A DNA stretch of 64,000 bases, from NCBI GenBank assembly GCA_030704615.1, contig CM060732.1:25916001-25980000 (forward strand). The letters run 5' to 3'. Shown in pieces: positions 2,183 through 45,766 of the stretch (position 1 is the first letter of the stretch; every line of letters begins with the position of its first letter). The translations under genes were made by a program, and so were the position numbers. The notes under the pieces are model-generated. The model had not been told where the DNA came from. It made no database searches and worked only from the letters and a program-made list of their open reading frames with translations. The stretch is from Takakia lepidozioides (taxonomy: Eukaryota > Plantae > Bryophyta).

Positions 2183-3012
2183 AAATTCCCATAGAACCTA
2201 AAATAGGCAGGTTTTCCATCCTCAAGTCTTCCATTGAGGGTCTTTCATATTCTACACCTGAATAAGACAGTGCATACTGAAAAATTGCTGTCACTAGAGA
2301 CATGTTGCACTTGGTACTAGATCGTTTCTTGGACTTACGGGTATCATCTCTGCAGTGCCCTCCCGCCTTTCGGAGCATTTTTGTACTTATAACATGGAGA
2401 ATTGTGGACCTAGTGGCATGTACATCCTTGTTTTTGTTAACTGCACTATATTTCCATGAATTGTAGCAAGCACACAAGTAGCTGCCATGTCTGAGCTTCT
2501 ATCAAACCTAGATGATAAAAATGGTGGCTTGCATGAAACAAGATCAGGACTGCTAGGAAAGTTAATTTACTGCAAGGTATAACAGGGTGAGATGCAAACA
2601 AGTTTGGAAGACAACATGCAAGGATCCAGGTATCTGAATTGCTACTTGAAATTTTAGAAAAGCAGGAGCATCCTGAAAAGCCCTAAAACGACTTTTTTCT
2701 ATTTTCGGTTGGTGTATCTTCTTTTTGGCTTTTCCCGTTAGTAAAAGGCAGCGTTTGCTTTTGTAAACCCTAAAACATGCCTGCGTATTGCGTTGTGCAT
2801 TCTTCTTCATCTTGTTCGTCGTCATCCGAGCTTTCTTCTTCGGACGCTGAAGGATCGCTTTGCTGGTGTTCGACTCGTGGGTTTGGGTCTCGCAGTTTTT
2901 CTCTTTCAAAAGAGTCTTGTGGGTTTTTGAGTCTTGCAGTCTGTTCTGCTAGAAAAGCTTGTCTTCCCTTCTCTTCTGCCCAGTGGGCGTGGGTTAGAAG
3001 TGTATCGACAAG

Positions 3013-3792
3013 ATGCCGGCCACGGCAGGGCGCGTGCGGATGCCCGCTAACAACCGGGTGCATAGTAGTGCGGCTCTTCAGACTCATGGTATCTGGCAGA
3101 GTGCAATAGGGTATGATCCATATGCCCCCGACCAGAAGCATCGATCTGACGACCGGGCACCAGACTCTGCAGTTGGAGGTGCTGCATCGGCCACTGATGA
3201 GCAAAACGCATATGACAGCTTTCAAGGCCTTCTTGCCTTGGCTCGTCTTACAGGGTCTAATGCTGACGAGGCAAGGGGGGCTTGCAAAAAGTGTGGAAGA
3301 GTAGGCCATCTCACCTTTCAGTGCCGCAACTTTCTTACTGCCAAAGAGGAGGCAGCGGCAGCAGCAGCAGCAGCTGTGGCTTTGGAGCGAGAGAGGGGCA
3401 GTGGCAAAGGCAAAGATCACGACGGTGCAGGCACGCTACCGAATGGGGAGAGTTCGGAGGAGGAAAGCGAGATTTCAGATAGCGATGAAGACTCTGAAAT
3501 GGAGAGGGCACTTGCCAGGCTTGGCAACAAGACGAAGAGTAGCAGAGTGAGAGTGCGGGAAAGAGAGAGGTCTGAGTCCCCCAAGCGTAAGAAGTCCAAA
3601 TCTTCATCATCGAAATCGTCGAAGAAGAGACGGGAGGTATCTTCAGACGTCAGTGATGATGACAGGTCTGACCGCAAGAAGTATTCGAGAAAGAGACACA
3701 AATCCAGCAGGAGACACAAGGATGTGTCGGAGTCCGACAGACCAGGTAAGGAGAGCAGGCGGAGCAAGCATCACCACCACTCACGTCGATGA
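3013..3792 (+). CDS. CXIP4: CAX-interacting protein 4-like zinc-knuckle protein with K/R/S-rich tail (intronless CDS)
   Basis: Conserved N-terminus MPATAGRVRMPANNRVHSSAALQTHGIWQSAIGYDPY, CCHC knuckle CKKCGRVGHLTFQC, acidic then RS/K-rich C-terminus. Confidence 0.9.
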   Translation: MPATAGRVRMPANNRVHSSAALQTHGIWQSAIGYDPYAPDQKHRSDDRAPDSAVGGAASATDEQNAYDSFQGLLALARLTGSNADEARGACKKCGRVGHLTFQCRNFLTAKEEAAAAAAAAVALERERGSGKGKDHDGAGTLPNGESSEEESEISDSDEDSEMERALARLGNKTKSSRVRVRERERSESPKRKKSKSSSSKSSKKRREVSSDVSDDDRSDRKKYSRKRHKSSRRHKDVSESDRPGKESRRSKHHHHSRR

Positions 3793-6700: not shown

Positions 6701-9345
6701 AGTGACTTATTTTGTATTACAGTTGCGGCCCATTGCATTTAGTTGGTATATTGCATGCAAAACAAGTTTTGAGGGAGTGCAATATCTCCCCTTCATATCC
6801 AAATCAATGATCACCCCTCTAGAAAACCAGTTTCATTTACAAAAACCATATCCATGTCACCCCAAACTATAATTGACATAGCTTTAAAAGTATATGATTA
6901 ACACAACCCACATAGTTAATCGGGTATTTCGACTATAAAAAGGGTTAAAACACTATGAAGTGTTTTGTCCTCGGTCGATCAGTCCTCTAGATGGAATATG
7001 TTCATTCAATTTGGCACGATCGGATTCAGTCTGATGAGATTTCAATTAGAAGGGGGTCTGTTGTGTCATAAGCGTCATGCCACATTAACATACATCGCTG
7101 TCGAACCACGTTTCCTTGCATATGCTCTTAGACATTTATGCAACAATCGCCCCTTTAGTAAGGCATCCCCTCTGCTTGAGCCCAAAGACTACGAGATATC
7201 ATGCAGCTCTCTCACTTTTTCAGCGCATAGCAGTATCAAGGTAGATGGCTGAAGTACCACTGCTAGTTACAGAAACCATGAGTTGCAGCACCGAGCAAGA
7301 TCCTCTGATGCGCCATGGAGAACATCAACTGACATCTTGCGATGTCGAAGGTGCTAAAGACTCTTCATGAAGTCTTGCTATGAGAATGCGGTAGGTGGTG
7401 AGGGGCGTTTCATCTCCATGGGGATGACCTGCTGGGCCCACGCATCAATGGGGGGTAGCTGACACTCTTTCAAGTGGATCCCATTCTTCTAAATGTTGTC
7501 CTTTAATGTGGTGGTCCCAATTGTCCATCTTCACCAGGCTGGCATAGCCCCCCCTTTTGCACCAAAACAGAATTTGTAAGTTCACATATGGAAACAAAAA
7601 CCAAAACCAAAACAATTCTAGCAACACTGGTGGGATTTCACAAGCTTTTGATTCAGAAGTGTGGTCCATAGCTACACCTTATTGCATGCTTTACAATTCA
7701 CTTTTGCTTTGAAAGCAGACATGTTATGGGTATAAACAAGATGATCTCTAGATTCACATCGAGCAAATGGGGGAAGCATTCAATCATAACTTTGCAATTT
7801 CATGTAGACCACGTGTGACTTGGAAGTTTCAAATAATCAGAAGTCCAAAACACTATATTGAAATCAGCCCATATACCACCTTGTTGAGCACTGGTGGACA
7901 TTTTATTGAAGTATACTTCTTCTGAGTGTACTCCGTATAATAAATGCAGGAATTTAGGAGCATGTTCTCTAATTGAGTAATTAGCCACACGAGGATGGTT
8001 TGAATTCAAAACTTCCTTTAAATGTTGAACGACAATTATCGCACTGTTAGCGAAGACAATCTAGTTTTTTTTAGGTACACAATTGTGCGGAAAAAACAAT
8101 CGTATGCCCCCAAGGCAGGGGAATATAATGGTGTAGCATGGCTCATACAGCTCTTGTTGATTTCCAGCAAGCTGAATCATCTAAGCCTAAGGAGCCCGGT
8201 TGCAGGTATGGACGTGACGCCGCAGTAACACGTCAGCGTCGGCTTCACGTCGCGTCCATAAGAAGACATTCATCGCGGTAATTTTTTTATTTTTTATTTT
8301 TTACCTTCTTTTGCCACATTGGCGACAGCGAGGACGAAGGTGACCGGCCAGGTCACGGCTTGTCGAGGCGACCATGCAAGCGCCGGTCGCCGGTCGCCGG
8401 GCGGGATGGGGCGCCAGCCCGGACGACCGCCACGTCAGCCATGTGGGCGACCACCACATTGCGCTGGTGGCCGCCACGTGGTGGACATCTTCCGGAAGGC
8501 ACTTGGGTGACCGCTTTTGAGCGGTCGCCCATATAGGGGGGAAGGAGGCCATTCTTGGCTCTCACTTTCACTCTTCCCCTTTAGCTCTGTGGGTGTGGGA
8601 TGCTTTGCATTCTGCCGAGCGGAGTTAGAGGAAGATGGAAGCCATTGACACGGAGGAGGAGGTTTTGTCTCCGATTTTTATAAAATTGTGGGCTTTTTCC
8701 TACCCCCGCATCCCATCTTTGGCTTCCAAACCCATTTTCTCAATTCATTAGGTGGGGACTAAATAGATCTTTGTGTATTTTGGATTTGGGCCCCCCTTGT
8801 GGTGTGTTACATTTTACTGTGATTTTGCTGAAATTGATGAGTTTCGGTCAAACGAGGTGACTGGAGCATGTACACTAGGTCTTTACATCATATAGAAATA
8901 AAGGAGAGTTGTGTAAAGGCTATATAATATTACGAACGTTATAAAAATGACGGAGGAGGGGGGGCAACGGCGTAGGCACCGAGAGGAGGCGGTCGAACCA
9001 GGCCTCGCAGGGAAGAGAGGTGCCAAAGGGAAGAAACAAGACCTCAATTGGGACGTTTACGATAGGCCGGAAATTCAAGCGGCCGATGGATATGATGCTT
9101 TCCGGAGAACAAACTGTGGACTATGGGGATGTGTAAAAAATTCGTGAAAATGTGTCACTTAACCGTTTGTGGCCCAGGCCAAGGCATCAGATACACACTC
9201 GGAACAATTGCTGCGACGCCCCAACTTGCACAAATGCACATTTTTGCCAGAGGGCCGAAGATGTATACAAGACATTGTGGGGACAACCAAAGTTGTACCG
9301 AAACTCCATACCATATACATTGGCAGCCGTGGTGTATGTTGAGTT

Positions 9346-11215
9346 TTGCATAGGCGTGTGGATTGGCAGACAGCCACAAAACGAAAAGGAATGAAGCAGT
9401 ACACCCTTAGCGACATCCTCGACACATATGAGCCCCAGCCCCAAAGCAAGTTGAATGCAGCTACAGCAACAGTAGCACTACCATCACCCCAACGCGAGTT
9501 GAATGCACCTGCAGCAACAATAGCACTGCTATTGTCCCAATCCGTATTGAATGCACCCGAAGCAACTGCAGCACAGTCTTTGTTGGAAAACGAATTGCAA
9601 GCCAAAGACCGACGTATCGCGGAGTTGGAGGACATGGTGAATAGGCAAAGGCGTCAAATAGAGGAATTGGATAGACAGTCCTCAATATTGGTCGACGATG
9701 TCATTGCACAAATAACTTATAATATTCCCAGCCCGCCCCGGTCGTCATTTGCTGTTGCACAGGATGCAAGGCTTGAATGTGAACAGAGGACAAAAGGCAA
9801 GGACCCTATGGTGGTGAGGGGTGAGTGTTCGGGAACAACTATTCAATCCGACACAACAATTGTTGTGGAAAATCTCATTAAGAAACGTGATACCACAAGG
9901 GTGACTGCAAATCGGCTGGCCAGGGTAGTACACCTCAAAAGGTTCGTGCCACGTGAAGAGATGTGGACGGAGTGGGTCATGTGGGCGAGAACTTTGGCAT
10001 CAGAAGAGGTTCAGAAAGAACATGCACTATATCGACTACAACAAGCTGCACGGATGTCAGATCGTGTTGTGCAGAACATTTATGCAAACATGCAGCGCTA
10101 TGAGGCATTTGCCACTAACCGAGAAAAAGAAAATGATGAAGAAAGAAAGAAACGTGAAGGCCAAGACGTATCCGCCGCATTTGCCACCCATACATCCGAG
10201 TTTGACTCATTTCACGGTGTGGGATGATTTACATGGCATGTTTGACCGTTGTGAACATAGAGTTGGTGGAGGCAATGAGAGCATAATTTGGGAATTTGAA
10301 ATGGAGGAGGAGTGGGATACTAGTGAGACACAAATGTCATCTCACTTGTTCGACAACAAGCGAGTGGAGTGCTCACGTCCTCCAATACCATCATGGATCA
10401 AAGATGGCTCGTGTTGTCCAGTTTGCCTTAATCCATATGGTCCGGAGGGTGCATACTTGTTGGGAAGTTGTGGACATATGTTTCACATAACTTGTTTGAA
10501 GTCGGTGGCTCTGATAAGCAACACATGTCTGTCATGTCGTGCGCCAATACACCGACGTTACTATGAGCTATTTGGGTTGGAGGATGTGATGCCCATAGGG
10601 TATGAGCTCAATCGACACAATTTCCCTTTGAACCAGGAACCTCACAATTTTTTGAACGGCAAACACTAGGGGAAGACGTTGGCATGGAATGCCGATACGA
10701 GGATGTATGGCATGATATCCGATCGAACGTTCGATATCAATGAGTTTTGGATGACATCTAATTGGGAAATCACAAAACGTGCTCGTTGCATAGAAGATCC
10801 AGATCAACGGGAGTTGTTTTGTCGAAACCTTGGAGGACATAGGGGAATAAGAAGCAAGAGGTTTTTTTGGTTGCCCGAGAACCCACCAAACGGAGTGAAC
10901 CTTTCCTCATACAATGGTAATCCGATTGGCCGGCATCTGCTGCTACATAGCCTTGAGCGTGTTGCCAAATCATGGATCCGAATGAACGACACAATGACGG
11001 AACGCAAAGAGCGGCGGCTGCGTTGCAATCCCGCATATGAGGATGCGGATGAAAAGAAAATCAACAGATATGCCAAGGCCATTAGGCAAGTCGTTAGAAC
11101 GTGGCAAATGAGTCTAGAAAGCGTGTTAGTGGGTGTGAAATCCATTGATCTCCCAAATGTCCAGGACCTTGTAGCTACCTTGGAGGCCGCTAAAATTGTC
11201 GCCAACAATGTTTAA
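9346..11215 (+). pseudogene. Disrupted ORF of unknown family with coiled-coil region and RING-H2 finger; probably transposon-borne
   Basis: Three consecutive ORFs (9346-10227, 9953-10669, 10679-11215) joined by one frameshift and one in-frame stop. RING-H2 pattern CPVC...CGHMFHITC...CLSC at ~10415-10540. Three 16-aa (48-bp) repeats LNAxxAT at ~9451-9590. Confidence 0.55.
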
Positions 11216-12313
11216 CTCGCCGCCTCGTTGCCTCCAAAATGATAGTCAGCAGAGTGACAATCAATACTCCCCGGAGTCACTCCGCATGATGGCAAGGGTG
11301 GACGAGGAACGTGTTAGGCTCGGGCCACCACCTCGCACTCGATACCAGACCTGAGCTCACTTGTGCATTCATCCGGACGCCGCTTCTACACACTCAGCGT
11401 TGTCATCAACCCCACGTCCGGCGATGCCATCTGCAACTTCAGGGAGTGAAACACAAGAGACTATAGATTTATCCGAATAGCCTCGCTCTTACATATTAGT
11501 AATTACAACTATGAATAGATCTTTTTGTCGATGATATTATTCCTATAACTTCTAATAGCTTTGTAAAATTTCAACATAGCATTTCATGCCCGAATTTTGA
11601 AGCATTGCCCATGAGGCATGTCTTTCGTGATTTGACTATGGCGCCCAATGCTTGTGGATGACCTTGAAACACTCTTACTCATTATTCTGGAATTTTCAAT
11701 TTGAATTTTGCATGGACCACGGTTGTACGTCATATTTGTTGAACTGAATAACTGTTAACTAGAATAATTTTGATTGACCTGATAGGGATTTAATGTAGAA
11801 CTTCATAGTGTCGATGAGTAAGTTATAACTTATTAACAAGTCCACCGTTGTTGTCAAGTTGCGGTTTGGAATTTTAATCAAGTCCAACGGCATACATGAA
11901 TATTTCATAGGGATACTCAATTTCAGAGTGAATAGTTCTCAATACAATGCATGCCAAAATGTGAATATTGCGCGGTCTACTCTGCTGGACAACCGCGGTT
12001 GTTGTATATCCCATCTTGTTCGTCATTGATCCAGCATCATTTGGCATTATTGATATTATTTTATATGAACATCATGGTGCATGCACATTCCACTTTGCAT
12101 ACATTCATAGTTTCATAATTATATAAATGCAAGTTCCGAACCAATTTCATATTTCATACGAAAGCAAACGGGGCTACATGTATTCCAATAGTTTAGTGGA
12201 CCGCGACATATTCACCGCCTGAGGCCTATACAGCAAGTGACGATGCCGGTAATTCTACTAGTTTGGATAGCTCCCAAGCGGGAGATGATGCAGAGGGCAA
12301 TGATGCAGAGGGC

Positions 12314-13010
12314 TGTCGTGCGCATACATATCGCTACACAACTACATCGCTGTCCAAAAACACACAACACATGTGCACACCACACACTAGTATACCACTA
12401 GTCCACCACTAGTCCAGCCACTAGTCCAACCACTAGGCTACAACTAGTCAGTCACTAGGCTGCCACTATGCTGCCCACTATGGCAGTCACTAGTCCACAC
12501 AATGATAAAGAAGAAGAATACAAGCACGAGCTCACAAATCTGAAGCATAAACTCATGCATATATAACCTCATCACTCAAATACAAGTTAAGCCAAGTGCA
12601 CCCCACGCCATGGGGAATCCACACTACGGCGCCATAGCTAGGCGCGGTGAGGCTCAACTCGAGAAAGATGAGCCTTCCGCGCTTGTCGTGAAGATAACCA
12701 CTCCAGGGCCTAAATCTGTCTTGACCCCTGGATTAACACTTGGGCCAATCCCAAATGTCAATATGTAAAAGCTAGCTATTTCTTAGCTAGTTTCACACTA
12801 GTGGTAAAATAACTTGACAGCTGTCGTGCGCATACATATCGCTACACAACTACATCGCTGTCCAAAACCACACAACACATGTGCACACCACACACTAGTA
12901 TACCACTAGTCCACCACTAGTCCAACCACTAGTCCAACCACTAGGCTACAACTAGTCAGTCACTAGGCTGCCACTATGCTGCCCACTATGGCAGTCACTA
13001 GTCCACACAA
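12314..13010 (+). repeat. Left terminal repeat complex: A1 (12314-12502), B1 (12503-12656), C1 (12657-12819), GC spacer, A2 (12822-13010)
   Basis: A1 and A2 are 189-bp direct repeats with 2 mismatches by manual comparison. B1 and C1 recur at the right end. Confidence 0.92.
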
Positions 13011-13269
13011 TTGCCCCCCTAGCTGGTGCTTAGGTCCCTCTAAGTCCAAGTAGCCACAAGATGTGATAGTGACCATAGCCTCACTAAGTCCTCCACCACT
13101 ATCCCTACTACACTCAAACTCGATAGACCAAGAGGCCGGGTGCAAGAGTTGCCCCATCGTTAGTCGCCGTCTTGCAACCTGTGAACTTGAGCTTGGGATC
13201 TCATGTATTGACTTTTATGAGCTTGGCCTCCCATGTCTTCTTAGCTGCCTCCAGTCATGTCCACTGCCA

Positions 13270-14640
13270 CTATCCCAAGCAGTGTGGACACAACCAATCT
13301 CCGTCAGGAACCTTCTCAAGAGGTGGTGTCAAGCATCCCATATGCCAACCCCTTGAGCATCGATAACACACCAGCATGGTGGCTGCCCCTTTGGCAGACC
13401 CACAGAGCATGCACCTCAAACCTGCAGGTACCACTGCTAAGTTTGGGTCAACTCTGCCATCGACATTGGGAAGGTGACATGGCGCACAATTACGCACATG
13501 GTCCTTCCAAGTCATGCCATCCCGACCCTCTAAGATCAGGACCCATGAGGGCAACACCTCTCGAACCCTCAGAATAACACGCCCTGCAGTAACATCCAGA
13601 GTTGTAGGAGCAGTCTGCTGCAAATAAACATAGTCACCAGGGCTAAACCTCCGAACCCCAGGACGATATCCTCCACCACATATAGTGGCATACATCAACG
13701 TATCACGGTGTTGTGCAATGGCAAGGTTCTCAAAAGCCATGGGCATGACTTTCTTGAACAACTCTGCATGCTGATCACATGCACGTACCCACACGTCCGG
13801 ATCGTCAAGGTTAAGGACTTGAGCAGTGTCCCTACGAATGGCTGCAGGCAAATCCGACTCTCGGCCAAAGAGAAGGAAATATGGTGAGAAGGAGGCAAGT
13901 GATGCTTGTTTGCTGAACCTGTAGCCCATGGCTAACCAAGGAACCTGAAGATCCCAATCTCCTAGGTGTCCCTTCTGCAAGCCATACTTGCGCAAACCCC
14001 TCTTCACCGTCTGAACAACTCTCTCTGCTAAGCCATCGGCCTCAGGATGATCCCGAGAAGTGGTGCGGTGGTCTATCAAGGCTTTATCACACAAAGCCTG
14101 AAACTCCCCCAAGAACTCTCTCCCTTGGTCCGTGAGTACCTCAGCTGGAGCACCAAATCGGCTAAGCACACGATCCAAGAATGCATACGCAGCCCCCTCA
14201 ATAGCCTTGTCAGGCAATGGAACCAACTCAATCCACTTGGAGAAGTGCTCCACCATCACCAACACATATATGTGGTGGCGCATAGTCAGTGGCAACGGTC
14301 CTGCGAAGTCAAGACTCCACCTGTAGCCCAATCCCATGATTGGTAAAGGATGCAACTGTGGTGTAGAGGCGTTGAATGAAGCACGCATCCTGTCACACAC
14401 CATGCACCTAGCCACGAACTGTTGCACCTCTGTATGCATACCACGCCACCAATACTGCCCCTGCAGTAAACTGTGAGTGCGTCGCACTCCAAAATGCCCC
14501 AACTCCTCATGGGCATGCCGCACTAACCATGCACGCTGTGTGGGGTGAGGCACAATCCTCACCCGACCATCCTCCCACACTCGAAGTAGGTGTATCCCCT
14601 CCCACTTGAACCTCTTGGCTCGTTGCAGGATCCGATCCTC
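13270..14640 (-). pseudogene. Retroviral-type integrase (HHCC + DDE) with C-terminal PHD finger
   Basis: HEELGH...CMVC zinc motif; SLDFAGPLP, TDQGREF, GLAER catalytic triad; C-terminal C4HC3 finger CMLC...CYRC...WHMGC...WLCPHC. Frameshift near 14640 relative to the RNase H frame. Confidence 0.93.
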
Positions 14641-14899
14641 TCCCTGGCAGTCAAAGTGGCTGCCGTGTCTCCCGTGCGGAGGTAGTCCAACACAGCCGAA
14701 TCCTCATGTATATCTCTGGCACCACCTGGCTTATCACTAGCCTCAGGGTCCTCAGACACTCCGTCTACAGTCATCCCTGTTGTAGGTCCAACCTGACCTC
14801 CCGATGCCAAGATACACAAAAATGCAGATGCGTGCCATCCCGGCACCATCTCCTCATCCGTCTCACCATGCCACCGAGCTCCAGTGTCATCCCGCTGGC

Positions 14900-16244
14900 T
14901 CATGCATGGATTATGACTCAATCCATCCGCATCCCGATTGACCAAACCTGGTCGATGCACAACCTGAAAGTCATACTCCTGGAGTATGAGTGCCCACCGT
15001 GCAAGCTTCCCCGTAAGCTTGTCTGACTCCATCAACCACTTGAGTGGCTGGTGATCTGTGACAAGGGTGAAAAGATTGCCGTATAGATAGCACCTGAAGT
15101 GTGCCACGGCCCACACTGCAGCTAAGCACTCTCCCTCATATGAGCTGTACTTAGCCTCTGCAGCGTTGTTTGAGCGGCTAGCATAAGCAACTACGAACTC
15201 TCTTCCCTCATCATCCACCTGTGTGAGCACCGCTCCAAGCCCCAACATGCTCCAATCCGTATGCAGCTGAAAGGGACGCCCCCTGATAGGTCGTCTCAGG
15301 ATAGGCGCCGAGATCAACCTCGCCTTGAGCTCTTGAAAAGCTCGTTCCTGCTCATCTTCCCACTGCTACTCCTGGTCCACCTTGGTCAGCTTGGTTAGAG
15401 CCTTTGCAATGGTACTAAATCCCTTGACAAACCGTCTATAATAGTTTGCCAACCCCATGAAAGCTCGAACTCGGCTCACATCCGTGGGGCATGGAATTTG
15501 TGCAATGGCCTCTACCTTAGTCTGCTGTACCCCCAATCCTCCAGGATATATCATGTGACCCAGATACTCAATCTGGTTGTGGAAAAACTTGCACTTCCCC
15601 GGATGCAACTTCAATCCGTGCGCTCTCAAGCGCTCCAATACCACCTGAAGGTGTCTCTCATGCTCCTCCATCGTAACACTAAAGATGATGATGTCATCTA
15701 TGTAGCACCGAGCAAAGTCCACCCTTGCTAGAATCCTATCCATGACTCTCTGAAACTCTGCAGGAGCATTCTTAAGCCCAAATGGTAAGAACCGCCACTG
15801 ATATAGGCAATCCTTGCCGTGCTCATTGATCCCCCAGAATGTCGTCTTCTGCTTGTCCGCCTCCTTGATTGGCAACTGGTGATATCCGGATCGTAAATCC
15901 AAAGTGCTAAAGACCTTAGCATGCCCGATGGCATCAAAGATCTCCTCCGGTGTTGGCATGGCATACTTATCGGACTTGGTCTGACGATTTACAGGCCGGT
16001 AATCACCGCACATACGTCTCTCCGTCCAATTGCCATAGACATCCTTCTTGGCTGACATCACTGTGGCTGAAGCATGCTCTCCACCAGAGAGCTCCACCAA
16101 ACCTGCCTCCCAGAGATCTTGAGTCCTCATCTGAATCAAAGACCTCTCCATGTCACTGTATCTATAGGGTCTCCGAAAGATTGGCGTGTCAGTGGCCAAC
16201 TCAATACGGATCTCTTGACCCTTCAGTGCTCCCAAGTCCTTCAA
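14900..16244 (-). pseudogene. Reverse transcriptase and RNase H of the retrotransposon
   Basis: RMCGDYRPVN, LDLRSGYHQ, LPFGLKNAPAEFQR, YIDD, YLGH; RNase H TDWSMLGLGAVL, EGECLA, TDHQPL, DADGLS. One in-frame TAG at 15366-15368. Confidence 0.95.
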
Positions 16245-16699
16245 ACTGAAGGCAAAGCAATTTCTGTAAGCCCTCAGGAACCGCTGTATACGTCGTCTCT
16301 CTCCTCCGGTGACAATGGGTCCAATGTCAGGCTCCCAATTGTCCTCCGTAACTGCAACCTTAAGTCCCGTGGGCTTAGAGGTAGAGGACGCGTCCCATGG
16401 TTGCTATGCTGCAACCTCTTGAGCAGTACTCCCTGCCTGCTCAGTCAATGACAAGACCTCATCCTGCCCCATCATCTCATCATTGAGGACCTCCTCAACC
16501 CGAGAAGAATCCCCAACCTCATCTATCACAGCCGCCTTGGCTGCCAACTCCCTCTGAACCTCGAGCACCTCCCACGTGTGCCATGGATGAATACGCCCTG
16601 TGGTCCTCACTGGCTCGCCCCCACTCACTGCCTGTACCGTCTCGGTAGGCAGAGAGACCATCGAGGGAAGTGTACTCCGCACTCTGCGTTGCTCAGCCA

Positions 16700-17660
16700 G
16701 AGCCAAGCTGATAATCCAGGTCAAGCAATTGAGATCCATTGCTTGCCCCAACACTTGACGACGTGATGCCTCAGAAAGAGACGACACCGCCGTGGTACCA
16801 GTGGTAAAACCCATTGCCCGCTCACGCTCGTCAGCATTAGGCTCCACTAACTGCTGCAACTGAGCATCCCACATGAGGCCAGGTCCACTATCCCGGAAAG
16901 CATGCGATCCTGGGAAGCTGAGCAGTGTAGGTAATGCTGCTCGTGGTTGACCCACCTTGTTGACCACTGCCAAAGGCGAACGGTCATTGTGTCTCACACG
17001 CTAAGACTGCCTCCCTGTGTCCAGAATGCTATCCACTGTGAGATGTGCTGGCCGCTGCACCCCATCAAATGCACGCTTGAGCAGTGCGGGTGGCATCAAG
17101 TTAGTCCACCATAGCCATGGACGATGAGCCCGTGACCCCACTGTAGGTGCATCTAGCAACACTGCTGACCCAAGCCATGACCGGACTTGATGCACACCGG
17201 CCATCACCCTGGCCCGAGAATCGCCCATCAGTGGCACATTCTCCAAGATGTATGCTGGAGATACAGCTTGATGAAGCTGCAAGTGACGCAAAACCCGCAC
17301 CATCTCCCAAAACAGACCCGACCTTGAGTCTTGCAATCCATTGCCATGCCCGGCTGATGAATGCCCTTGGCAGGGCCAACCTGCCACTACCAGATCAATG
17401 GAGCCAACCCGCTCCAAATCCTACGCCCCCAGCAACGAAATGTCTGCTGACAAGGCCTGCTGATATCCACGAATTGTAGACACCGACAACAACTCAGGAT
17501 ACCGCTGCACCAACTGAGCAACATGACGAAGTGAAACGCGCCGTGCAGTCTCATCCCTCTCCACATACAGGTAACGCCGAACTCGTACACCTGCCTGTAA
17601 CACAGCAGCCAATCCGGTGCTGATCCCGCCAAACAAGTCCAGAAGACAAATGCCTTCATC
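16700..17660 (-). pseudogene. C5 cytosine DNA methyltransferase domain (DNMT3-like, non-permuted), in frame within pol; interrupted by two TAG stops
   Basis: Motif I LDLFGGI (~17630), motif II YVE, motif IV AGWPCQ (~17370), motif VI ILENV (~17240), motif VIII AHRPWLWWTN, motif IX/X ERERAMGF...RRQVLGQAM. ORFs 17421-18503, 17001-17417 and 16404-16997 share one frame. Confidence 0.9.
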
Positions 17661-17999
17661 CGGATACTGCCACACAATTGGTGTGGTGTCCAATGGAGAC
17701 AACTGAGGTGGTCCTGGTGCAATCCCCGCACTCTCCTCCTCTCCTGATGGTACAAAAGCCTCCACCCAGGCTTGTTGCACCCGTCGATCAGCATCCCGCT
17801 GCAAATCCTTGCTCGTGCCCCACAATGGAGTCTGAGCAACCATGGTAGGCAACTCCGCCATACCATACATGTCCATCTGCTCTCCCGGAGGTGGCACATC
17901 CTCTGAATGAGCGTTGCCCTCAAGCAACTCTCTAGGCCAACTCACTGCTGCTGTGAATGCTGCTAGTGTCGGCATCTTGCCTCGCTGGGCAACCGCAAC

Positions 18000-18503
18000 T
18001 CCTCCTATGAACGTCACAGGGAGCTGCACACGCCGGCCCTCCCCTGACTGCCATGCAGGCCTATAGGAAGCTGACTCCTCCCAAAAATCCAGGGTGAAGC
18101 CCATGGGATACAACACTGCCCCACCAACCAGGACATCGTATGAGACCGCGTCTGTCACAATGGCCTTGGCTCGCATCACTGAGCCATCTGTAGGGTGATC
18201 CGGCCGTAGTCTGATAGCCAACTCACGCCGTGCCATGCCTCGAGCCTGCTCCGATCCTCCCAGAGACGTCTGTATCTGGAAAGGACAAGGCTCCATATTC
18301 GCCTCCGTGAGGCCCAAGCCTGCAATAGCAGCTCTGCCCAGCATCAATGGCTGAGCTCCCGAGTCCAACAAGACCCGCAGTGGCCGGTACCTCTTGCCTG
18401 CCGGTCCACTCAAACAGAAAATGCCATCCTGGTTGTCTAACATGACAACTCCAGGTGTCACCATGGCGCGCTCAATGGCTGGCCTAGCTGGCAGCTCCAT
18501 CAA
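18000..18503 (-). pseudogene. Retropepsin-like aspartic protease domain of the polyprotein
   Basis: VLLDSGAQPLML catalytic motif at ~18360 and YDVLVG C-terminal motif. Confidence 0.8.
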
Positions 18504-18772
18504 CCTGGCAGCTGCAGCTTGCCATGGCGCCGTCGTGTCTTGACCCTCAAATCCGAGGATCCCTCCGGCACTACACCTCCCACTATCTCCGCAGAAGATG
18601 AAGTAACCTCCTCACTCTCACAGAGTGTAGCTGCCAGCCTAGACACCTCAGCTAGTCTTACCCCCGGGCGCCGCAATCATGGTAGCCGAGAACAATGGAG
18701 TCTGGCACACAGATGTGGCCGCTCCTAGCAGCACACTAGCTGCCGTAGCCTTGGCAACACTAGGTAGTGGTG

Positions 18773-19537
18773 CTACCCGTGTAGCTCTCCCAATGGCATA
18801 GTAACCTCCGCCTCGGTAACAGTCGGGCGAGAACTAGGTGCCATGGATGGCGTCGACACTGTCTCCGCCAATGTGAATGACTGAGGAAGCCTAGCCCGAC
18901 GGCTTGCCTCCCCACGCTGTGGATCCAACTCCACCTCTGCACCTCGTGGCTCAGAAACTCGTGTTGCTCCTCGAGTCACGGCTGCAGCAGACTCCACCTG
19001 CACTAGTGGTAGTGCTGCTTCACACATGAATCCCATGCCTCCCATATCTCCTCCCTCAGGAGCAGGAGGTGGACCATCCGGCCTTAGAGCCGGTACCACC
19101 TGAGCTGTAGCCATGGCAGCGAGCCTCTGCTCTAGCTGCTGAAGCCGGTTGGCCATGCCTTGGTCAACCCCCTGACCTCCGCGTCCTTGGCCATGTTGAG
19201 CTGGCCCTTGGCCTGCACCTTGTGGCTGGCCACCTCGTCCTCTCTGGGCTGCTCCACCTCGCCCCCGGCCACCATTGTTCCCTTGGAACTGGCCTGGGCG
19301 CAACTCAGGATGCAAACCATAACACTGGGCCTCTCCATGCCCGTGCTTGCCACAATGCCCACATTGCAACTGTGCAGGCTGTGCATGTGCCGGCCCTTTG
19401 CCTCCCTCTGGGCAATCCTTCTTGACATGGGGTCCTCCACATGTCCAGCACACCACATCCGCCCGTTGTTGGCCAGCAAATGAAGGGAGAGACCCCTGCA
19501 TCTGAGGTCCTCTTTGCCCTTCCCTGAGCCTCACCAC
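18773..19537 (-). pseudogene. Gag nucleocapsid region: two zinc knuckles and G/Q/R-rich tract; no capsid domain visible
   Basis: CWTCGGPHVKKDC and CGHCGKHGHGEAQC, followed by RGG-rich sequence. Confidence 0.8.
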
Positions 19538-19840
19538 GCCTAGCTATGACGCCGTAGTGTGGATTCCCCATGGCGTGGGGTGCACTTGGCTTGACTTGTA
19601 TTTGAGTGATGAGGTTATATATGCGTGAGTTTATGCTTCAGATTTGTGAGCTCGTGCTTGTATTCTTCTTCTTTATCACTCGAGAAAGATGAGCCTTCCG
19701 CGCTTGCCGTGAAGATAGCCACTCCAGGGCCTAAATCTGCCTTGACCCCTGGATTGACACTTGGGCCAATCCCAAATGTCAATATATAAAAGCTAGCTAT
19801 TTCCTAGCTAGTTTCACACTAGTGGTAAAATAACTTGACA
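19525..19840 (+). repeat. Right terminal repeat complex: inverted copy of B (19525-19678) followed by direct copy of C (19678-19840)
   Basis: 19525-19678 is the reverse complement of 12503-12656 (4 mismatches). 19678-19840 is a direct repeat of 12657-12819 (6 mismatches). Confidence 0.92.
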
Positions 19841-20661
19841 GGGCAATGAATATGATGCACATGGTTTCAACGAGGACGATGATACAATGCCTTTGTTGTT
19901 TGATGACTTACTCACAGATAATGTGGTGCATCATGTGGCTCATATTGGAGCCATCCGCACTACAGTGCATGATACGGACCACCACCCGCATGTGCATCCT
20001 CTTGTGACATTGCCAAGCAGTGCAGTCAACTTCGGCCTTCACCCAAGCGTGGATGAGGAACGTGGCTCAGATAGTATTCCGATTGGGAACGAAACCAATG
20101 AAAATGTGGAAGTACACATGGCGGCAATTTTTACCCTCCCGTCCATCACAACACCGCAAACAACAGAGGAAGTTGAAGAGCCCGAGTCGCACGAGAATGT
20201 GACAAAAAACATGGCAAGCGCTCCTGTGACGTGAGGACAGGCACTTCGGTCATCCCAAATGCAGATAGAAATGTCTCTGGTGGATCCATCGGATGACGAT
20301 CATTTGCCATTGCAGGTCCATCTGAACCGACAGTCCACCCATGTCAATCGACTCTCATATCATGTCGGCGGACCCTCAGCAGCGCATCACCGTGGCCCCC
20401 ATTCTGGTACGAGAATACAAAATCCCCCACAAGCGGCGAAAAGGCAAAAAACTATACAAAGTTTCATTGGTGATCGCAACACACGTGGGCCAGATACTAT
20501 CGATGGAATTACTGATCGCAACGGGAATAGGCCGATGCGGCAAATGAAGATCAAACGGGGTCAGATGCGTCTAAAAATGCCCGATGCAACCACAACAGCC
20601 ACCGAGGACGATGACAATACCGACCATGGCGCTGGCGGTGAAGTGCAGGGGGATTCGGACT

Positions 20662-21995: not shown

Positions 21996-24703
21996 ATGAG
22001 GGGGAGCCTCGTTCACTTAGTGCAGTTTCTCTGGGGCCGGTCATCACCTCTCATGCGTGACCCACCTGGTCCAATTGGTATATCTCGCTTACCAAATGAA
22101 TTCTTCAGTGTTTACAAGTTTTTGAGCAAAGCACTCAGATATTGGATTCTGCAGAGTTTGAGCGGAAACCAAAGGGACAGAACCTGTGGTAAGATACTTG
22201 AAACTTTTGTGGCTTTCAATGTGGTCTTGGGAGTGTTTTGCATCGGTCAGCCCAGGTGGTTGATTTATTCCTTGGTATGATGTAGGTGAGATCAGGCAGG
22301 CTTGCAGTCTAGTCACTTCTAATGGAAAGGGACAATCTGGCCGAAAGTACCAGCATGAACGCAAAGAGTCAGATGAAGTATCCATACAAGGGAAAATCGA
22401 GACGGCGACGAGGGTTCTAAGCTGTGGAGATGCCGGTAGTGGGGCCCTTGGACACACAGAGAGCTATGGAGGGGACGCTTATGAGCCAAGAGAGGTGGAT
22501 GGCATTCCCTCCAACATTGTGGGTGTGGGGGCAGGACACTATCACTCCTTGGCTGTCACACAATCAGGGGAGCTTTGGGCCTGGGGGCGTAATGCAGAGG
22601 GCCAGCTTGGTCCAAGAGTCAAAGATTCCAGGTTGGTTTGCGTTCCAGCCTTTTGTGTTTTGCTCATTTACTTCTGTTATTTCAATCTGTTGGATGCAGG
22701 GAATGTGGTCCAAATAATCCCAGCCTTAATCATCAGTTTAGAACTACGACAGTATACCTTAACTGGCTATGTTGGAGTGTAACATACTGGTAATTTTACT
22801 ACATAAAATAAGTTACTTCAATCAAGTGTCATCATGGGGAGGTGCTTTGCCCAACAGGTTGCATTGCCCTTCAATGTCAATCTTGGTCTTAAGCTAGACA
22901 TAGCCGCCTTGTTTCAGGCCCCTTGCCTACTCACAGATGGTTTGTAGATCAAACTCTCTGTCTCTTTTACCATGTCTTGAATTCTCTTGGACACACAATC
23001 ACTGACTTGTGTGCCCTGATGGATTGAGGCTCAGAAATTCAAAGCTGTCAACAGATTCCAGATTGGGTTTAAGTTTTGCAGTTAACTATATACTTTTCAT
23101 TATCCTATACTATGATTATTGAGAGGAGCGTTGAATGAAACCGTCAGAGAAACATGGCACCGACCTCAAAAGGTGAAGGGATTGGAGAGTGTTCAAGTGA
23201 AGGTGGCAGCAGCATCAGGGGTGGTCTCGATGGCTATAGCAACCGATGGATCGCTGTGGGCATGGGGCAAGTCCAAGCGAGGACAGCTGGGCTTGGGCCC
23301 TGGCATTACAGAAGCTGAAGTCCCACGGCGAGTTGGGGCCTTGGCTGGGGAACAAGTAGTGCAGGTGCATAGGTACTACTACCCTTTCTTCCCCTCCCCT
23401 ACTCCTTTGTCCTCTATGCAATAAAAAGCTACCAGTGTGTTATGAAGCATAGGCCTACCAAGGCCCCAAACATGGGTATGTTCTGTTTAGAGTTGTTCAA
23501 GATTTAAGTTGCACAGGGACCGGCAGCAACTAAGAACATTGTTTCTCCTTAGCTGTGTCTATTGGGATATATCTAGCAGGGGTTGGCCAAGGCTGGAGAA
23601 TTCTGTAAAGAAGAGTACGCTTCCTAACAAACCTTTTACTGCATGGCAGGTAGCTTTGGGGTGGGGCCATGCGCTTGCATGCACAACCAAAGGCCACTTG
23701 TATAGCTGGGGTTATGCTGCAGATGGCAGGCTTGGATTTTGGCCAGAGATTTCACCACGGGAAAGAGCAGTTGTGGAAACTGTAACACCTAAAAGTGAAA
23801 TGGGGAAGACTTTGAGTATGCAGGAGCTTGCAGAGAAGCAGGTGCATGAGGATATGGAGAGAGAAAAGATGCCAGTGCTGCAGTGGGAGCCATCCCCTGT
23901 GGGTTTTCTGAGTGGTCAGTTCATCACCGAGATTGCATGCGGGTTTGATCACTCACTTGCACTTACTGGTAAGTGGTCTGAGGTCTGACCCCCGCAGGCA
24001 TTTTAAAGTATCTTTGTTTATTTGTTTGTTTGGTGTCTCTCTAGAGTGTGCTCCACTGCATCAGTTGGTGATATCACAAATGTCATTACTACATCCCAAC
24101 ATTATGGACTGGTAAAGGGTCAGTGTCTTTGCCTGCAGTACAGGTGTTGGTTTGCTGAGTTCTTTCCAAGGATACAGTGCCTGATACATGTTTTATGCAG
24201 ATTGTGGTCAAATATTCAGCTTTGGAGACAACAGTCTTGGTCAACTTGGTAGGAAGATGGCAAAGGCTCCCACTCAACCAACCAACCTGACATCTGAGAA
24301 CCCGGTGCATTGTGTTGATGGTCGGCTTGCAATTAGCAGAATAGTACACATTGGTGCAGGGCTTGGTCACTCACTAGCCATTGATTCAGAAGGAGCAATT
24401 TTCTCATGGGGTTGGAATGCTGGATGCCAGCTAGGAAGAGAAGGGAACATGGACACCTCCAGTCCTGGGGAAATAAAAGATCTTCAAGGAAAAGGAGTTG
24501 TGGCTGTGGCTGGGGGCCGGGTTCATTCACTGGCCTTTACATCAAAGGGTGAAATTTGGGTCTGGGGAAGTGGGAAAAATGGAAGGCTGGGACTAGGGGG
24601 CCCTTCTGATGAGCCATTTCCTTTTCCTATTGAAAGCCTTGGGCATGTCACTGTGGTGCAAGCTGCTTGTGGATTTGATCATACACTTGTTCTTGTGAAG
24701 TAA
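21996..24703 (+). CDS. RCC1-repeat (UVR8/RUG2-like) beta-propeller protein, multi-exon
   Basis: Repeats VGAGHYHSLAVTQSGELWAWGRNAEGQLG, VALGWGHALA, IACGFDHSLAL, VAGGRVHSLAF...GRLG. Exons ~21996-22077, 22286-22631, 23148-23364, 23650-23968, 24201-24703; the start exon is inferred from frame-compatible splice sites. Confidence 0.88.
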
Positions 24704-40156: not shown

Positions 40157-42250
40157 CACTTAGCTCTTTTATTTTTAGGTCTTTTATTTAAGTTATTTAT
40201 AACTACTATGGAAGGACCTCACAAGAAGAACACTACTTACTCAAACTCACTTGTTTTCTTCTTGTTCTGTCGCTTCTTTCTCTAGTTGCAAAGCATTGTC
40301 TCTCTTTAAGTTTGAAGCTATGGCAAGAGCGGTCAAACGAAAGTGCCCTCTGTTTGTGTGTAGATGATCTAGATCTTACAGTCCAAGATGCAGCTTTTGA
40401 GGGTCTTATACTGAGCAGATATGACAATATCAACAAGCCATCTAGAAGACTCCCCAAGTACATGGTTATATTTGCATTGTGATCTCACGGATAGGTTTGG
40501 TTTGACAACAGTCGGTGTTACTGTCCCGGGGTCATTGGTCCAGACCCACTCGGATAAAGTCTACAAAATACATATTTACAGTTGGAGAATTTCTCTGTAC
40601 GTCCTAAACTTAAGTTTGAGAAAGACGATTTGATGTACTACTTGAAGATTACAGCAATAGTGACGGTTGCAAACTTCTCATGGAATCTTTTTGAGAAAAC
40701 ATTGATGGTGTCTTTGTAAAAGAAGTTGAGTACTGGAGGGATGTGAAATGGTGGTATGACCCACGTCACAAGGGAGGCGGAAGTAATCTTCAAGCAGTAT
40801 ATCAAATCGCCTTTCTCAAACTTTAGTTTAGGATGCATGAAAAAATTCTCCAAGCGCAAATATGCGCCTTTGTAGATTTTTTTTGAGTGGGTCTGGACCA
40901 GTGTTGGGCGGTTACCTGTTGGGACCCAGGTTAACCGCCGGTTCAGGTTCAGGTTAACCGGAACCGGGCCCATTCCTGCAGAACCCGACCCGGAACTGGA
41001 ACCTGCCAACGGCATAACCGAACCGGCGGTTCCTGCTGGGTGTGAGAACCGGAGAATTGGGGCGTAGTGGGATAAAAATAGGTTCCGGTTCTTGAACCCT
41101 TGTGGGCCCTTGGCATAACATGTGGAGAGCTGGTGGGCCCATGGCAAAACTTCTTTAATGCTCTCAAGCCTCCTCAGATCTTGGGTTCAATGCTTGAAGG
41201 CTATGAGATTCTATGTTCAATGCTTCAGCGCCATGAGATCTTGGGTTCAATCTCCAGCTCCATGATATCCTTGCTAAGTTCATTAATCATGCCAATACTT
41301 GCCAGGTAGCTGAATAGTAATTTCAACCCATAAAATTTTACCCGTTTTCTTCTACCAGTTTATTTAGAGTATTTTTGTTTGTTTTTTTTGTGTTAGTGAA
41401 AACTAATAAAATCGTTGGATTTTAGTTCAAATATGTGAATACACTGCTATTTAATCTACCGGACTGATAAAATATTTTAAATCTAATTAACATATTTTAA
41501 AAATAGAACCGGAACCTAAAAGGGAACCGGTGCTTTTTATCAGCAACTAACCGGTAACCGGAACCGCCCCCATGTTTAAAAGTTGGATCCAGAACCGGAC
41601 TGGAACCGGCTCAATAAAAAAAAACCGGAACCGTCTCTTGAAATAATTGTGGAACCGGAACCGAAGGTTCCTTCACAAATGCAAGAACCGCCCAACACTG
41701 GTCTGGACCAATGACCAATGGTGGTATGACCTGCGTCACAAGGGAGGCGGAAGTAATCTTCAAGCAGTACATCAAATCGCCTTTCTCGAACTTTAGTTTA
41801 GGACGCATGGAAAATTCTCCAAGCGCAAATATGCGCCTTTGTACAATTTCTCTGAGTGGGTTTGGACCAATGACCCCGAAATAGTAACACTGACTGTTGT
41901 CAAACCAAACATAACCGTGAGATCTCAATGCAACCATGTTCTTGGGAAAACCTGAATAGATGGTTTGTTGGTATTGTCTTATCTGCTCAATATAAGATCC
42001 TCAAAAATTGTATCTTGGACTGTATGATCTAGGTTATCTACACACAACAGATGGTGCTCTCGTTTGACCGCTCCTGCCATAGCTTCAAATAGCTTAAAGA
42101 GAGAAAACGCTTTGAAACTAGAGAAGGAAGAGGCAGAACAAGCATAAAACAAGATTGAGTGAGTGTGCTTTTCTTGTGAGGTCCTTTCATAGTAGTTATG
42201 AGACCAATGACGTAAATGGAAGACCTAAAAATAAAAAGAGCTAAATGTGA
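40157..42250. mobile_element. Non-autonomous foldback/MULE-like element with ~500-bp diverged terminal inverted repeats
   Basis: 40157-40652 aligns by eye with the reverse complement of 41753-42250 (e.g. TTAGCTCTTTTATTTTTAGGTCTT vs AAGACCTAAAAATAAAAAGAGCTAA). No coding capacity; TSD not resolved. Confidence 0.8.
40899..41700. mobile_element. Non-autonomous hAT element (802 bp) nested in the foldback element
   Basis: Perfect 15-bp TIR CAGTGTTGGGCGGTT; perfect 8-bp TSD GTCTGGAC (40891-40898 and 41701-41708); many subterminal AACCG(G) motifs. Confidence 0.93.
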
Positions 42251-44440: not shown

Positions 44441-45766
44441 AACTTAGCTTTTATGCAAGAAATCTCTGACATATGAAGGTCAACAGATTGTTGACCAAGC
44501 AAGGATCTGTAAACCAAGCCTACATCCAGGGACACACTATCTTAAATATGCTACAGTAAGCACATGATTCCCAGCTAACTCATTCAAACTCAAGAATCTA
44601 CCATGAATCAATATCTTCATTTCTGTGCGGAGAGAAATTTCTTCGGTCGATCGCCAGGTTGAATGTGACAGTCGCTAAACGAAGTACCGAATATATTCGT
44701 AGTAGTAATCTTGTTAATTGAACATCCAACTTCTGGCCACTTATCCATGATCATATCCACTTATCGAAATCCATCAGATCAGCGATGTCTAATTCATGGA
44801 TAGTGGAGAATGCAAAAGTAGAGCCCTCCACACCCATCGCTACATAGTCCTTCGTCTCATTCTTCTCAGGACCTCGTTCAGACTAGTAACTTCCATCTTG
44901 TCAACGACCTCAGAACCTGTTTCTACCGCAGCCACCTCCTTCACGAGTACCCAGCTCAAGAATCTTCACTGCCTCGATAATCGGCTAACCCGGCTCAAGA
45001 TTCTTCAGTGCCTCGATAATCGGCTCACTAGTGTCTGTACTGGTACTTCCATCAATGCATTGACTACCTGCAGTCGTATTCTGTGCACCAAACTATTTAG
45101 CTTCTATTCAAGAAATCTGTGACAGTACTTCATATGAAGGTCAACAAATTGTTGATCAAGCAAGAATCTCTCAACTATGCCTACATCCAGGGACACACTA
45201 GTTAATATGGTACAGTAAACACATGATTCCCAGCTAACTCATTCAAACTCAAGAATATACCATGAATCTTCACTCGAAGTTCATTTATGTGTGGAGAGAA
45301 ATTTCTTCAGTGTACTCGTGGCATGGATCGGCAGGTTGAATGTGACAGTCGCTAAATGAGTACCGAATATATTGGTAGTAGTAATCTAACAGTTGTTAAT
45401 TGAACTCATCCATGATTATTACCTAGTCGCAATCCATCAATCAGGGATATCTTCATGGATAGTGTAGAATAGAATGAAAAAGTTGAGCCCTCCACACCCA
45501 TCGCTACATTGTCCTTTTTCTCATTCTTCTCGGGACTTTGCTTAAGACTAGTTACATCCATCATGTCAACGACCTCAGAACCTGTTTCTACAGCAGGCAC
45601 CTTCTTCGTACCCAGCTCAAGAATCTTCACTGCCTCGATAATCGGCTAACCCGGCTCAAGATTCTTCATTGTCTCGATAATCGGCTTACGAGTGTCCGTA
45701 GTGGTACTTCCATCACATTGACTACATTGACTACCCACAGCAGTATTCTTCTGTGCACCAAACTAC
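44441..45766. repeat. Diverged tandem duplication of ~660 bp, each copy with an internal 39-bp tandem repeat
   Basis: Copy 1 ~44441-45095, copy 2 ~45096-45766. 39-bp units start at 44950/44989 and 45611/45650. Confidence 0.88.

Follow-up and report, generated by a model that had tools for sequence, protein, structure and literature searches.

A Ty3/gypsy element in a land-plant genome carries an integral DNMT3-type methyltransferase, a conserved in-frame stop codon and split terminal repeats

Introduction

The closest described counterpart of the element reported here is KnitGypsy-Dnmt3 of Klebsormidium nitens, a gypsy element with a Dnmt3 within it, for which a figure legend mentions DIRS-like repeats (de Mendoza et al, 2018; PMC5890265). 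In yeast, its Dnmt3 produced no de novo methylation, an outcome that the authors call inconclusive, and CG methylation was observed for SymbioDIRS-Dnmt3 (PMC5890265). By its published description, in the portions of that paper considered here, KnitGypsy-Dnmt3 shares with our element an intronless, non-permuted Dnmt3 that lies in the polyprotein frame and is under purifying selection, as well as DIRS-like split repeats combined with gypsy domains. It differs in having the DNMT in one ORF with RT and RNase H, where the clade studied here has a conserved stop in between, and in its host, ours being a land plant. The term PHD does not occur in the main text of PMC5890265, and self-priming, target-site duplications (TSDs) and a junction palindrome are absent from the parts of its text examined.

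Single traits recall other systems, as these are described in the portions of the sources considered here. In Tf1, Tj1 and Tcn1 (PMC4600332, PMC6317226), the primer site is complementary to the predicted RNA 5′ end, as in the present family, which differs by its split ends and by a PHD finger, not a chromodomain, at the integrase end. The foamy virus integrase, likewise of the DDE type, cleaves the palindromic junction of a two-LTR circle (PMC1180852), and a similar reaction is proposed below; the foamy virus palindrome is the LTR-LTR join, whereas in our element the palindrome is internal to the predicted LTR and integration leaves the LTR-LTR join in place. Ngaro/PAT split-direct-repeat elements have the same A1-ORFs-B1-A2-B2 layout, but our element has a DDE integrase and a protease instead of a tyrosine recombinase, together with a polypurine tract (PPT) and 4-bp TSDs. 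UAG-CAR-YYA is the readthrough signal of TMV (PMC2754532, PMC2194720); in stable lines of Arabidopsis it is read through at 6-10% (PMC2754532). In-frame stops are also found in MuLV, Tca2 and SIRE1 (PMC2194720); here too a TMV-type stop precedes the polymerase part, but it stands after Gag-PR-DNMT3, not after gag or pol, and its readthrough is predicted.

A 2019 review, in the part considered here (PMC6338049), names ‘land plants, such as tracheophytes’ as lacking methylase transposons. The wording ‘streptophytes (Gypsy-DNMT3)’ appears in a 2026 preprint, whose text contains none of the terms Marchantia, land plant and bryophyte. Five further sources (PMC9289625, PMC11244446, PMC9985172, 10.1101/2021.11.30.470311, 10.1101/2022.06.16.496473), in the portions considered here, contain nothing on this element family apart from a description of PHD fingers in a gypsy element of Chlamydomonas. 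In the available parts of the literature covered, which included few subscription journals and neither Repbase nor theses, we found no description of bryophyte copies, of the readthrough site, of self-priming or of the junction model. Here, we analyse such an element in a stretch of 64,000 nucleotides of Takakia lepidozioides DNA, referred to as the window.

Results

Domain order and classification of the element

The element, which is dead in this copy, has the order gag-PR-DNMT3-RT-RH-INT-PHD on the minus strand (Table 1). With X at each TAG, the minus-strand frame 18611->14559 reads through the protease, the C5-methyltransferase motif set, RT and RNase H and contains four TAG codons; before the integrase, the reading frame shifts near 14636, which it does not do in many other contigs of the family. 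Besides PF00145, the Pfam profiles RVT_1, RT_RNaseH, rve, Integrase_H2C2 and PHD match the window element, and its protease has no Pfam match.

Membership in Ty3/gypsy is indicated by the gag-PR-RT-RH-INT order with a DDE integrase, and by TG..CA ends, a 4-bp TSD, a PPT and a (self-)primer site; two whole LTRs as terminal direct repeats are not found, the repeats of the window element and its relatives being arranged as A..B-A-B. DIRS/Ngaro membership was rejected on the rve and H2C2 matches, the protease motif and the TSDs, with no tyrosine recombinase found. We found no match to a chromodomain after the integrase, the chromovirus trait of Tcn1 and Chlamyvir, and a PHD finger stands there instead. 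The solved PHD fingers nearest to it are those of CHD4, KDM5B, KDM5A and ATXR5, all of which we take to be readers of unmethylated H3K4.

Table 1. Features of the element, in window positions
Feature	Position	Strand	Remark
Whole element, 7527 bp	12314..19840	-	ends TGTC...GACA
TSD, left copy, 4 bp	12310..12313		
TSD, right copy, 4 bp	19841..19844		
5′ repeat A1	19525..19840	-	inner 154 bp (19525-19678) inverted in window copy
Predicted self-primer, 17 nt	19679..19695	-	reverse complement directly 3′ of A1 in other family copies
gag, 3′ part	18773..19535	-	CCHC knuckles at 19450-19412 and 19363-19322
Aspartic protease	18012..18491	-	LLDSGA 18371-18354; alignment to relatives matching Asp_protease_2
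DNMT3-type C5 cytosine methyltransferase	16689..17690	-	motifs I-X non-permuted; PF00145, structure matches
Methylase motif DLFGG	17639-17625	-	
Methylase motif YVERD		-	
Methylase motif GWPCQG	17381-17364	-	
Methylase motif ILENV	17249-17235	-	
Methylase motif RAHRPWLWWTN	17132-17100	-	
Methylase motif ERERAMGF	16829-16806	-	
Methylase motif RQVLGQAMD	16760-16734	-	
Conserved in-frame TAG, then CAA CCA	16398..16406	-	UAG-CAR-YYA, predicted readthrough site
Reverse transcriptase core	15549..16019	-	YIDD 15704-15690; PF00078, E 3.6e-33
RNase H	14973..15362	-	PF17917/PF17919; premature TAG 15368-15366 just 5′ of domain
DDE integrase, HHCC zinc finger and core	14044..14541	-	PF17921 and PF00665
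C-terminal PHD finger	13279..13413	-	PF00628, E 1.9e-9
PPT	13013..13020	-	directly 5′ of B1
Repeat B1	12822..13011	-	188/190 identical to B2
Palindromic B1/A2 junction GACA-GC-TGTC	12816..12825	-	same sequence as element ends when joined
Repeat A2, native orientation	12504..12819	-	vs A1: 156/162 and 150/154 identical
Repeat B2	12314..12503	-	3′ end of element

The methylase domain is of the DNMT3 type

PF00145 matches the window methylase with an E value of 8e-12 and 45.7 bits, against a cut-off of 22. By sequence, the best match among solved structures is DNMT3A (E 1.2e-10), which is colinear with the domain. DRM2 can be aligned in a permuted register only, and a DRM-type (permuted) origin was therefore rejected. 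An AlphaFold model of the domain (pLDDT 86.9) has DNMT3A/B as its top Foldseek matches (TM 0.65-0.70); a look-up of the methylase in the ESM Atlas returned generic C5 methylase clusters only. From these best sequence and fold matches, the methylase is assigned to the non-permuted DNMT3 type.

Among 62 aligned domains, the catalytic Cys is kept in 59, the motif VI Glu and Asn in 62 and 61, and the two Arg residues of motif VIII in 54 and 56, respectively, the second of these being Trp in the window copy. As catalytic residues are conserved across the family, the ancestral methylase was likely active. A GWECQ form of motif IV, with Glu for Pro before the catalytic Cys, occurs in 18/62 domains, including Closterium and a family that has no stop (loci L057-L097; proteins P0047, P0052, P0055, P0057, P0299, P0300 and P0308).

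The domain could also have been kept for binding, to DNA or chromatin or in particle assembly, or for methylating host or target DNA and not the cDNA. We regard this as a possible but less probable role: across deep splits the family keeps the catalytic Cys, the motif VI Glu and Asn and the motif VIII Arg, even if the Pro-to-Glu exchange in 18 of the domains, a Phe-to-Cys exchange in motif I of 12/62, the inactivity of the Klebsormidium domain in yeast and the predicted Gag-level expression (see below), which would suit a structural function, all point towards it.

The methylase is an integral part of an element family

Our metagenome scan yielded at least 600 pattern matches, 307 of which were confirmed, and the best 80 of these 307 were fetched as loci. 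In these 80, the protease lies 5′ of the methylase in 66 and RT 3′ of it in 62; where the fetched loci had room (n = 64 for each side), the protease was absent from 3 and RT from 5. The methylase domain further matched 81 longer proteins, the named relatives being from Calypogeia fissa (75% identity), Marchantia polymorpha (61-75%), Sphagnum (50-59%) and Closterium (37-43%), as well as from the chlorophyte Hariotina; no named Klebsormidium protein is among the matches listed for the domain. Copies from Marchantia, Calypogeia and Sphagnum can already be found in public proteomes, for the most part annotated as hypothetical or unnamed. In the Marchantia cluster, 4 of 15 listed members (P0095, P0096, P0097 and P0100) are on the V sex chromosome. 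P0275, a family member labelled as a protein of a bacterial MAG (Obscuribacterales), probably stems from transposon DNA of a plant or alga that ended up in the MAG through binning. In IMG/VR, 17 virus-contig loci have 29-48% identity over part of the methylase domain, and were left out of the analysis. Note that the contig depth summed across the element exceeds that of its flanks by about three orders of magnitude, which reflects many related contigs and is not a copy number.

Quick trees were computed from 62 methylase rows and 37 RT-RH rows, with SH-aLRT support only and without host DNMT1, DNMT3 or DRM sequences, and both recovered the same groups. The clade holding the window has full support; it also includes Marchantia, Calypogeia and Sphagnum in the methylase tree, and in the RT tree Marchantia and the loci L018-L032. 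An RT-only search gave 148 new proteins, the 45 most similar of which were examined and 33 of those put into the tree: long methylase-free relatives fall outside the methylase clade, with the exception of P0475, which ends shortly after RNase H. The charophyte Closterium is placed there in the same RT clade as our element. The dN/dS of the methylase is 0.11-0.14 among loci L034, L035 and L046, that is, purifying selection, and is similar to that of the protease (0.10-0.14). Between the window and L018-L032 it is ~0.07-0.09, with dS near saturation, and between decayed sister copies 0.24-0.50.

Taken together, the flanking protease and RT, purifying selection, the matching trees and the RT-only search indicate that the domain is ancient and, with near certainty, an integral and conserved part of the element family. 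In a sister clade (P0056, P0061, P0062 from Hariotina, P0068 and others), the same methylase stands between RNase H and the integrase, implying that the domain moved within the polyprotein.

The preliminary description of this DNA had proposed a profile search on the stop-corrected frame, separate methylase and RT trees and a dN/dS estimate. These analyses (the profiles PF00145, RVT_1 and rve all matched), together with the order in the loci and the RT-only search, bear out its view that the methylase is integral cargo and not a later insertion, and the motifs as located here agree with its full motif set in frame with protease and RT. Its DNMT3-like, non-permuted assignment likewise stands, as does the land-plant host, which is evident from genes elsewhere in the window: an intact single ORF of 769 aa for a PLS-E-DYW PPR editing factor (47669-49978, minus strand), and an RCC1 exon whose best plant match is the moss Ceratodon (59%; Marchantia 49-50%, most seed plants 38-48%). 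On these two grounds, algal contamination was rejected.

The RCC1-repeat gene (22264-24703, plus strand) is accompanied in the window by an ABC1 kinase gene (52309-54014, plus) and a zinc-knuckle ORF (2998-3792, plus). Long nested inverted repeats (82-89%) and direct repeats spaced by 970 bp at 40239-42164 are possibly a fold-back or DNA transposon, and 44470-45715 is a tandem duplication with a period of ~660 bp, 89-94% identical.

A conserved stop codon separates the methylase from the reverse transcriptase

In a related family, which groups with proteins from Sphagnum, a stop occupies the site between DNMT3 and RT in 31 of the 32 copies that cover it (23 TAG and 8 TAA), and over the 1159 codons scored the next most stop-rich codon has 9/21. 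The TAG between DNMT3 and RT is thus conserved and not a product of decay. Of 99 proteins with at least 45% identity, 77 terminate 60-200 aa past the domain, 19 stop before that and 3 continue; of the 47 that are more distant, 44 continue into Pol, the cluster members in both counts not being independent of one another.

The window stop (16406-16404) is followed by the bases listed in Table 1, and TAG CAG TTA is found in L034 and L035 and TAG CAA TCA in L046 and L091, so that all five carry the TMV-type signal, an in-frame UAG followed by CAR-YYA. Around it, the linkers of these three lineages (the window; L034/L035; L046/L091) are otherwise divergent. In the Sphagnum-grouping family the context is CAACCC in 30/32, which departs from the consensus at one base, and an in-frame ATG follows two codons later. 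RNA folds 3′ of the stop contain stems, but no structure common across lineages. The stop is missing from Closterium and from a second family of 37 loci, both of which have DNMT and RT in one uninterrupted ORF, so that readthrough is not needed for the design as such.

Given a conserved stop with a TMV-type signal, the DNMT3 is likely part of the abundant Gag-PR protein rather than of Pol. Were the codon instead a true terminator, RT-RH-INT would have to be produced by reinitiation or from an RNA that is spliced or has its own start, and the ATG just past the stop in one family could serve this purpose, as could a removal of the stop region, which the Marchantia and Sphagnum gene models P0008, P0010, P0013 and P0045 seem to skip. 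We consider this unlikely: in the window the first Met lies ~85 codons 3′ of the stop, within conserved RT N-terminal sequence, and the three divergent linkers stay in frame and vary solely at the degenerate positions of CAR-YYA. The introns of the four gene models are themselves probably false.

Split repeats, self-priming and insertion

The A1..B1-A2-B2 layout of the window element is also complete in L049, L060, L062, L064, L072 and L095, which belong to two families. An exact 4-bp TSD flanks 8 of the 10 copies with both ends, the exceptions being L060, with none, and L042, with only 3 of 4 bases. At every locus where it is seen, the B1/A2 junction reads GACA-NN-TGTC, with some decay. In both families, a G-rich tract (the PPT) stands directly 5′ of B1 and a primer site directly 3′ of A1, which delimits B+A (508 bp in the window) as the LTR; the integrated ends nevertheless lie at the B/A junction. 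The A2/B2 join resembles two predicted cDNA ends joined with an overlap of 0-2 nt. Within the A and B repeat pairs, copy-specific variants are common to both members and no difference between copies 1 and 2 is fixed (0), as for LTRs, so that both repeat copies are renewed in every cycle.

By eye, no TGG-type tRNA primer site is evident after A1, and the 64-kb window contains no tRNA genes. A1 is followed by a sequence reverse-complementary to an internal part of A; the match is exact over 15-17 nt in L049, L060, L064 and L076 and degraded to 6-11 nt in the other four of the eight loci tested (controls, 4-8 nt). In the family of the window copy, 20 contigs of public run X1 continue from the end of A into the 17-nt complement, after which their sequence departs from that of the window (behind 19694). 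The stem starts ~31 nt after a TATA box in L060, L064 and L076, and its sequence differs between the two families. Note that the fold z-scores of ~-4 obtained for the priming stem are inflated, the folded stretches having been hand-picked.

Six loci (L023, L026, L036, L047, L058 and L088) have a B-only 3′ end, in which PPT-B is followed by the flank without A2-B2, and L036 has a clean 4-bp duplication. These ends could be one-LTR-circle insertions, products of B1xB2 recombination or assembly collapse. In L041, an A end is joined to a piece of the primer site and to a B start, but the locus is rearranged and ambiguous and was left out of the analysis.

In the replication model proposed for split-direct-repeat (DIRS/Ngaro) elements, the internal junction templates the element ends. 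A route of this kind, with RNA running through B2, the internal B1-A2 junction templating the ends and the integrase replacing the recombinase, appears rather improbable here, as in both families PPT and primer site are placed precisely at the B1 start and the A1 end, respectively, the A2/B2 join looks like the predicted cDNA ends, and priming after A1 would leave B2 uncopied from RNA. It would nevertheless agree with the single insertion orientation: of 24 loci whose 5′ end is visible (with 22 different flanks), 0 have a mirror insertion (A-B-A-internal-B), an absence that a symmetric two-LTR circle leaves unexplained, so that the route keeps some weight; the repeat layout is also that described for DIRS (PMC5890265, the part of the peer-review file considered here).

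State of the window copy and its insertion site

Three of the four TAG codons in the window frame, at 17423-17421 and 17003-17001, both in the methylase, and at the edge of RNase H, are premature and not common to relatives, unlike the one at 16406-16404; the stop at 17003-17001 is absent from aligned relatives. Other family contigs, which come from public runs, are free of the stop at 17423-17421 and of both frameshifts (near 14636 and near 18788). The gag of the window copy has lost ~1.9 kb from its 5′ part, A1 being separated from the methylase by 2159 bp, compared with 3998-4255 bp in 9 relatives, and a loose contig end lies at 19535. The inverted 154 bp of A1 lie between the self-priming repeats, and the opposite-strand joint 19525/19678 is present in 4 of 4 public runs. 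The window repeat pairs are identical at 494/506 positions. Two statements of the preliminary description therefore have to be revised. The frame is not ‘broken only by TAG point stops’, given the two frameshifts, the gag loss, the inversion and the conservation of one TAG; nor do the data support a methylase ‘built into’ the polyprotein of pol, as Gag-PR-DNMT3 and RT-RH-INT are parted by a conserved stop in this bryophyte clade.

The inversion and deletion are private to the window copy and the six B-only ends are maybe collapsed repeats, which could suggest misassembly or a nested insertion behind the repeat layout or the methylase fusion. This is extremely improbable: the same layout recurs with exact duplications at independent loci of two families, and the empty site is present in reads, as a joint 12308->19840 in contigs of public runs X1, X3 and X5, with the two element flanks together forming one open frame. 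The frame split by the element is acidic and ~170 codons long (12200-12313 and 19845-20240), and RING-finger ORFs adjoin it (9343-11215).

Discussion

The methylase-in-gypsy type of element is known; beyond it, the family described here has a conserved stop, a self-primer stem and split ends. To account for these traits we propose the following cycle. The stop would very probably be read through at a few percent, placing DNMT3 at a Gag-like level, packed in excess over RT and IN. From the observed primer site and PPT, Tf1-like self-priming would, with similarly good probability, produce a linear B.A-internal-B.A cDNA. The cDNA ends may well then be joined into a two-LTR circle, with the integrase cutting at the upstream GACA-NN-TGTC to give A-internal-B-A-B. 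Within the particle, DNMT3 might finally methylate the cDNA, and integration might be steered by the PHD finger, a step about which we are somewhat doubtful. For the model as a whole, a bryophyte gypsy family combining readthrough, self-priming, circle insertion and predicted cDNA methylation, we lean slightly in favour. Its most extended form is tentative and on balance unlikely: a green-lineage clade, represented in Marchantia, with attachment sites inside the LTR and obligatory integration of circular cDNA, in which a leaky stop of viral type in bryophytes loads DNMT3 into the particle at a Gag-like level, the cDNA is premethylated and the PHD finger chooses the chromatin.

Elements of this kind are likely mis-called or missed by standard LTR finders. 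If the model is true, the integrase would be a natural DDE integrase whose recognised ends are distinct from the LTR ends, which bears on LTR circles as genuine integration intermediates. The expected enzyme dose would shift from a Pol level to a Gag level. Land plants, among them the genetic model Marchantia, would then have methylase-bearing retrotransposons, and the role of retrotransposon DNMTs would become directly testable.
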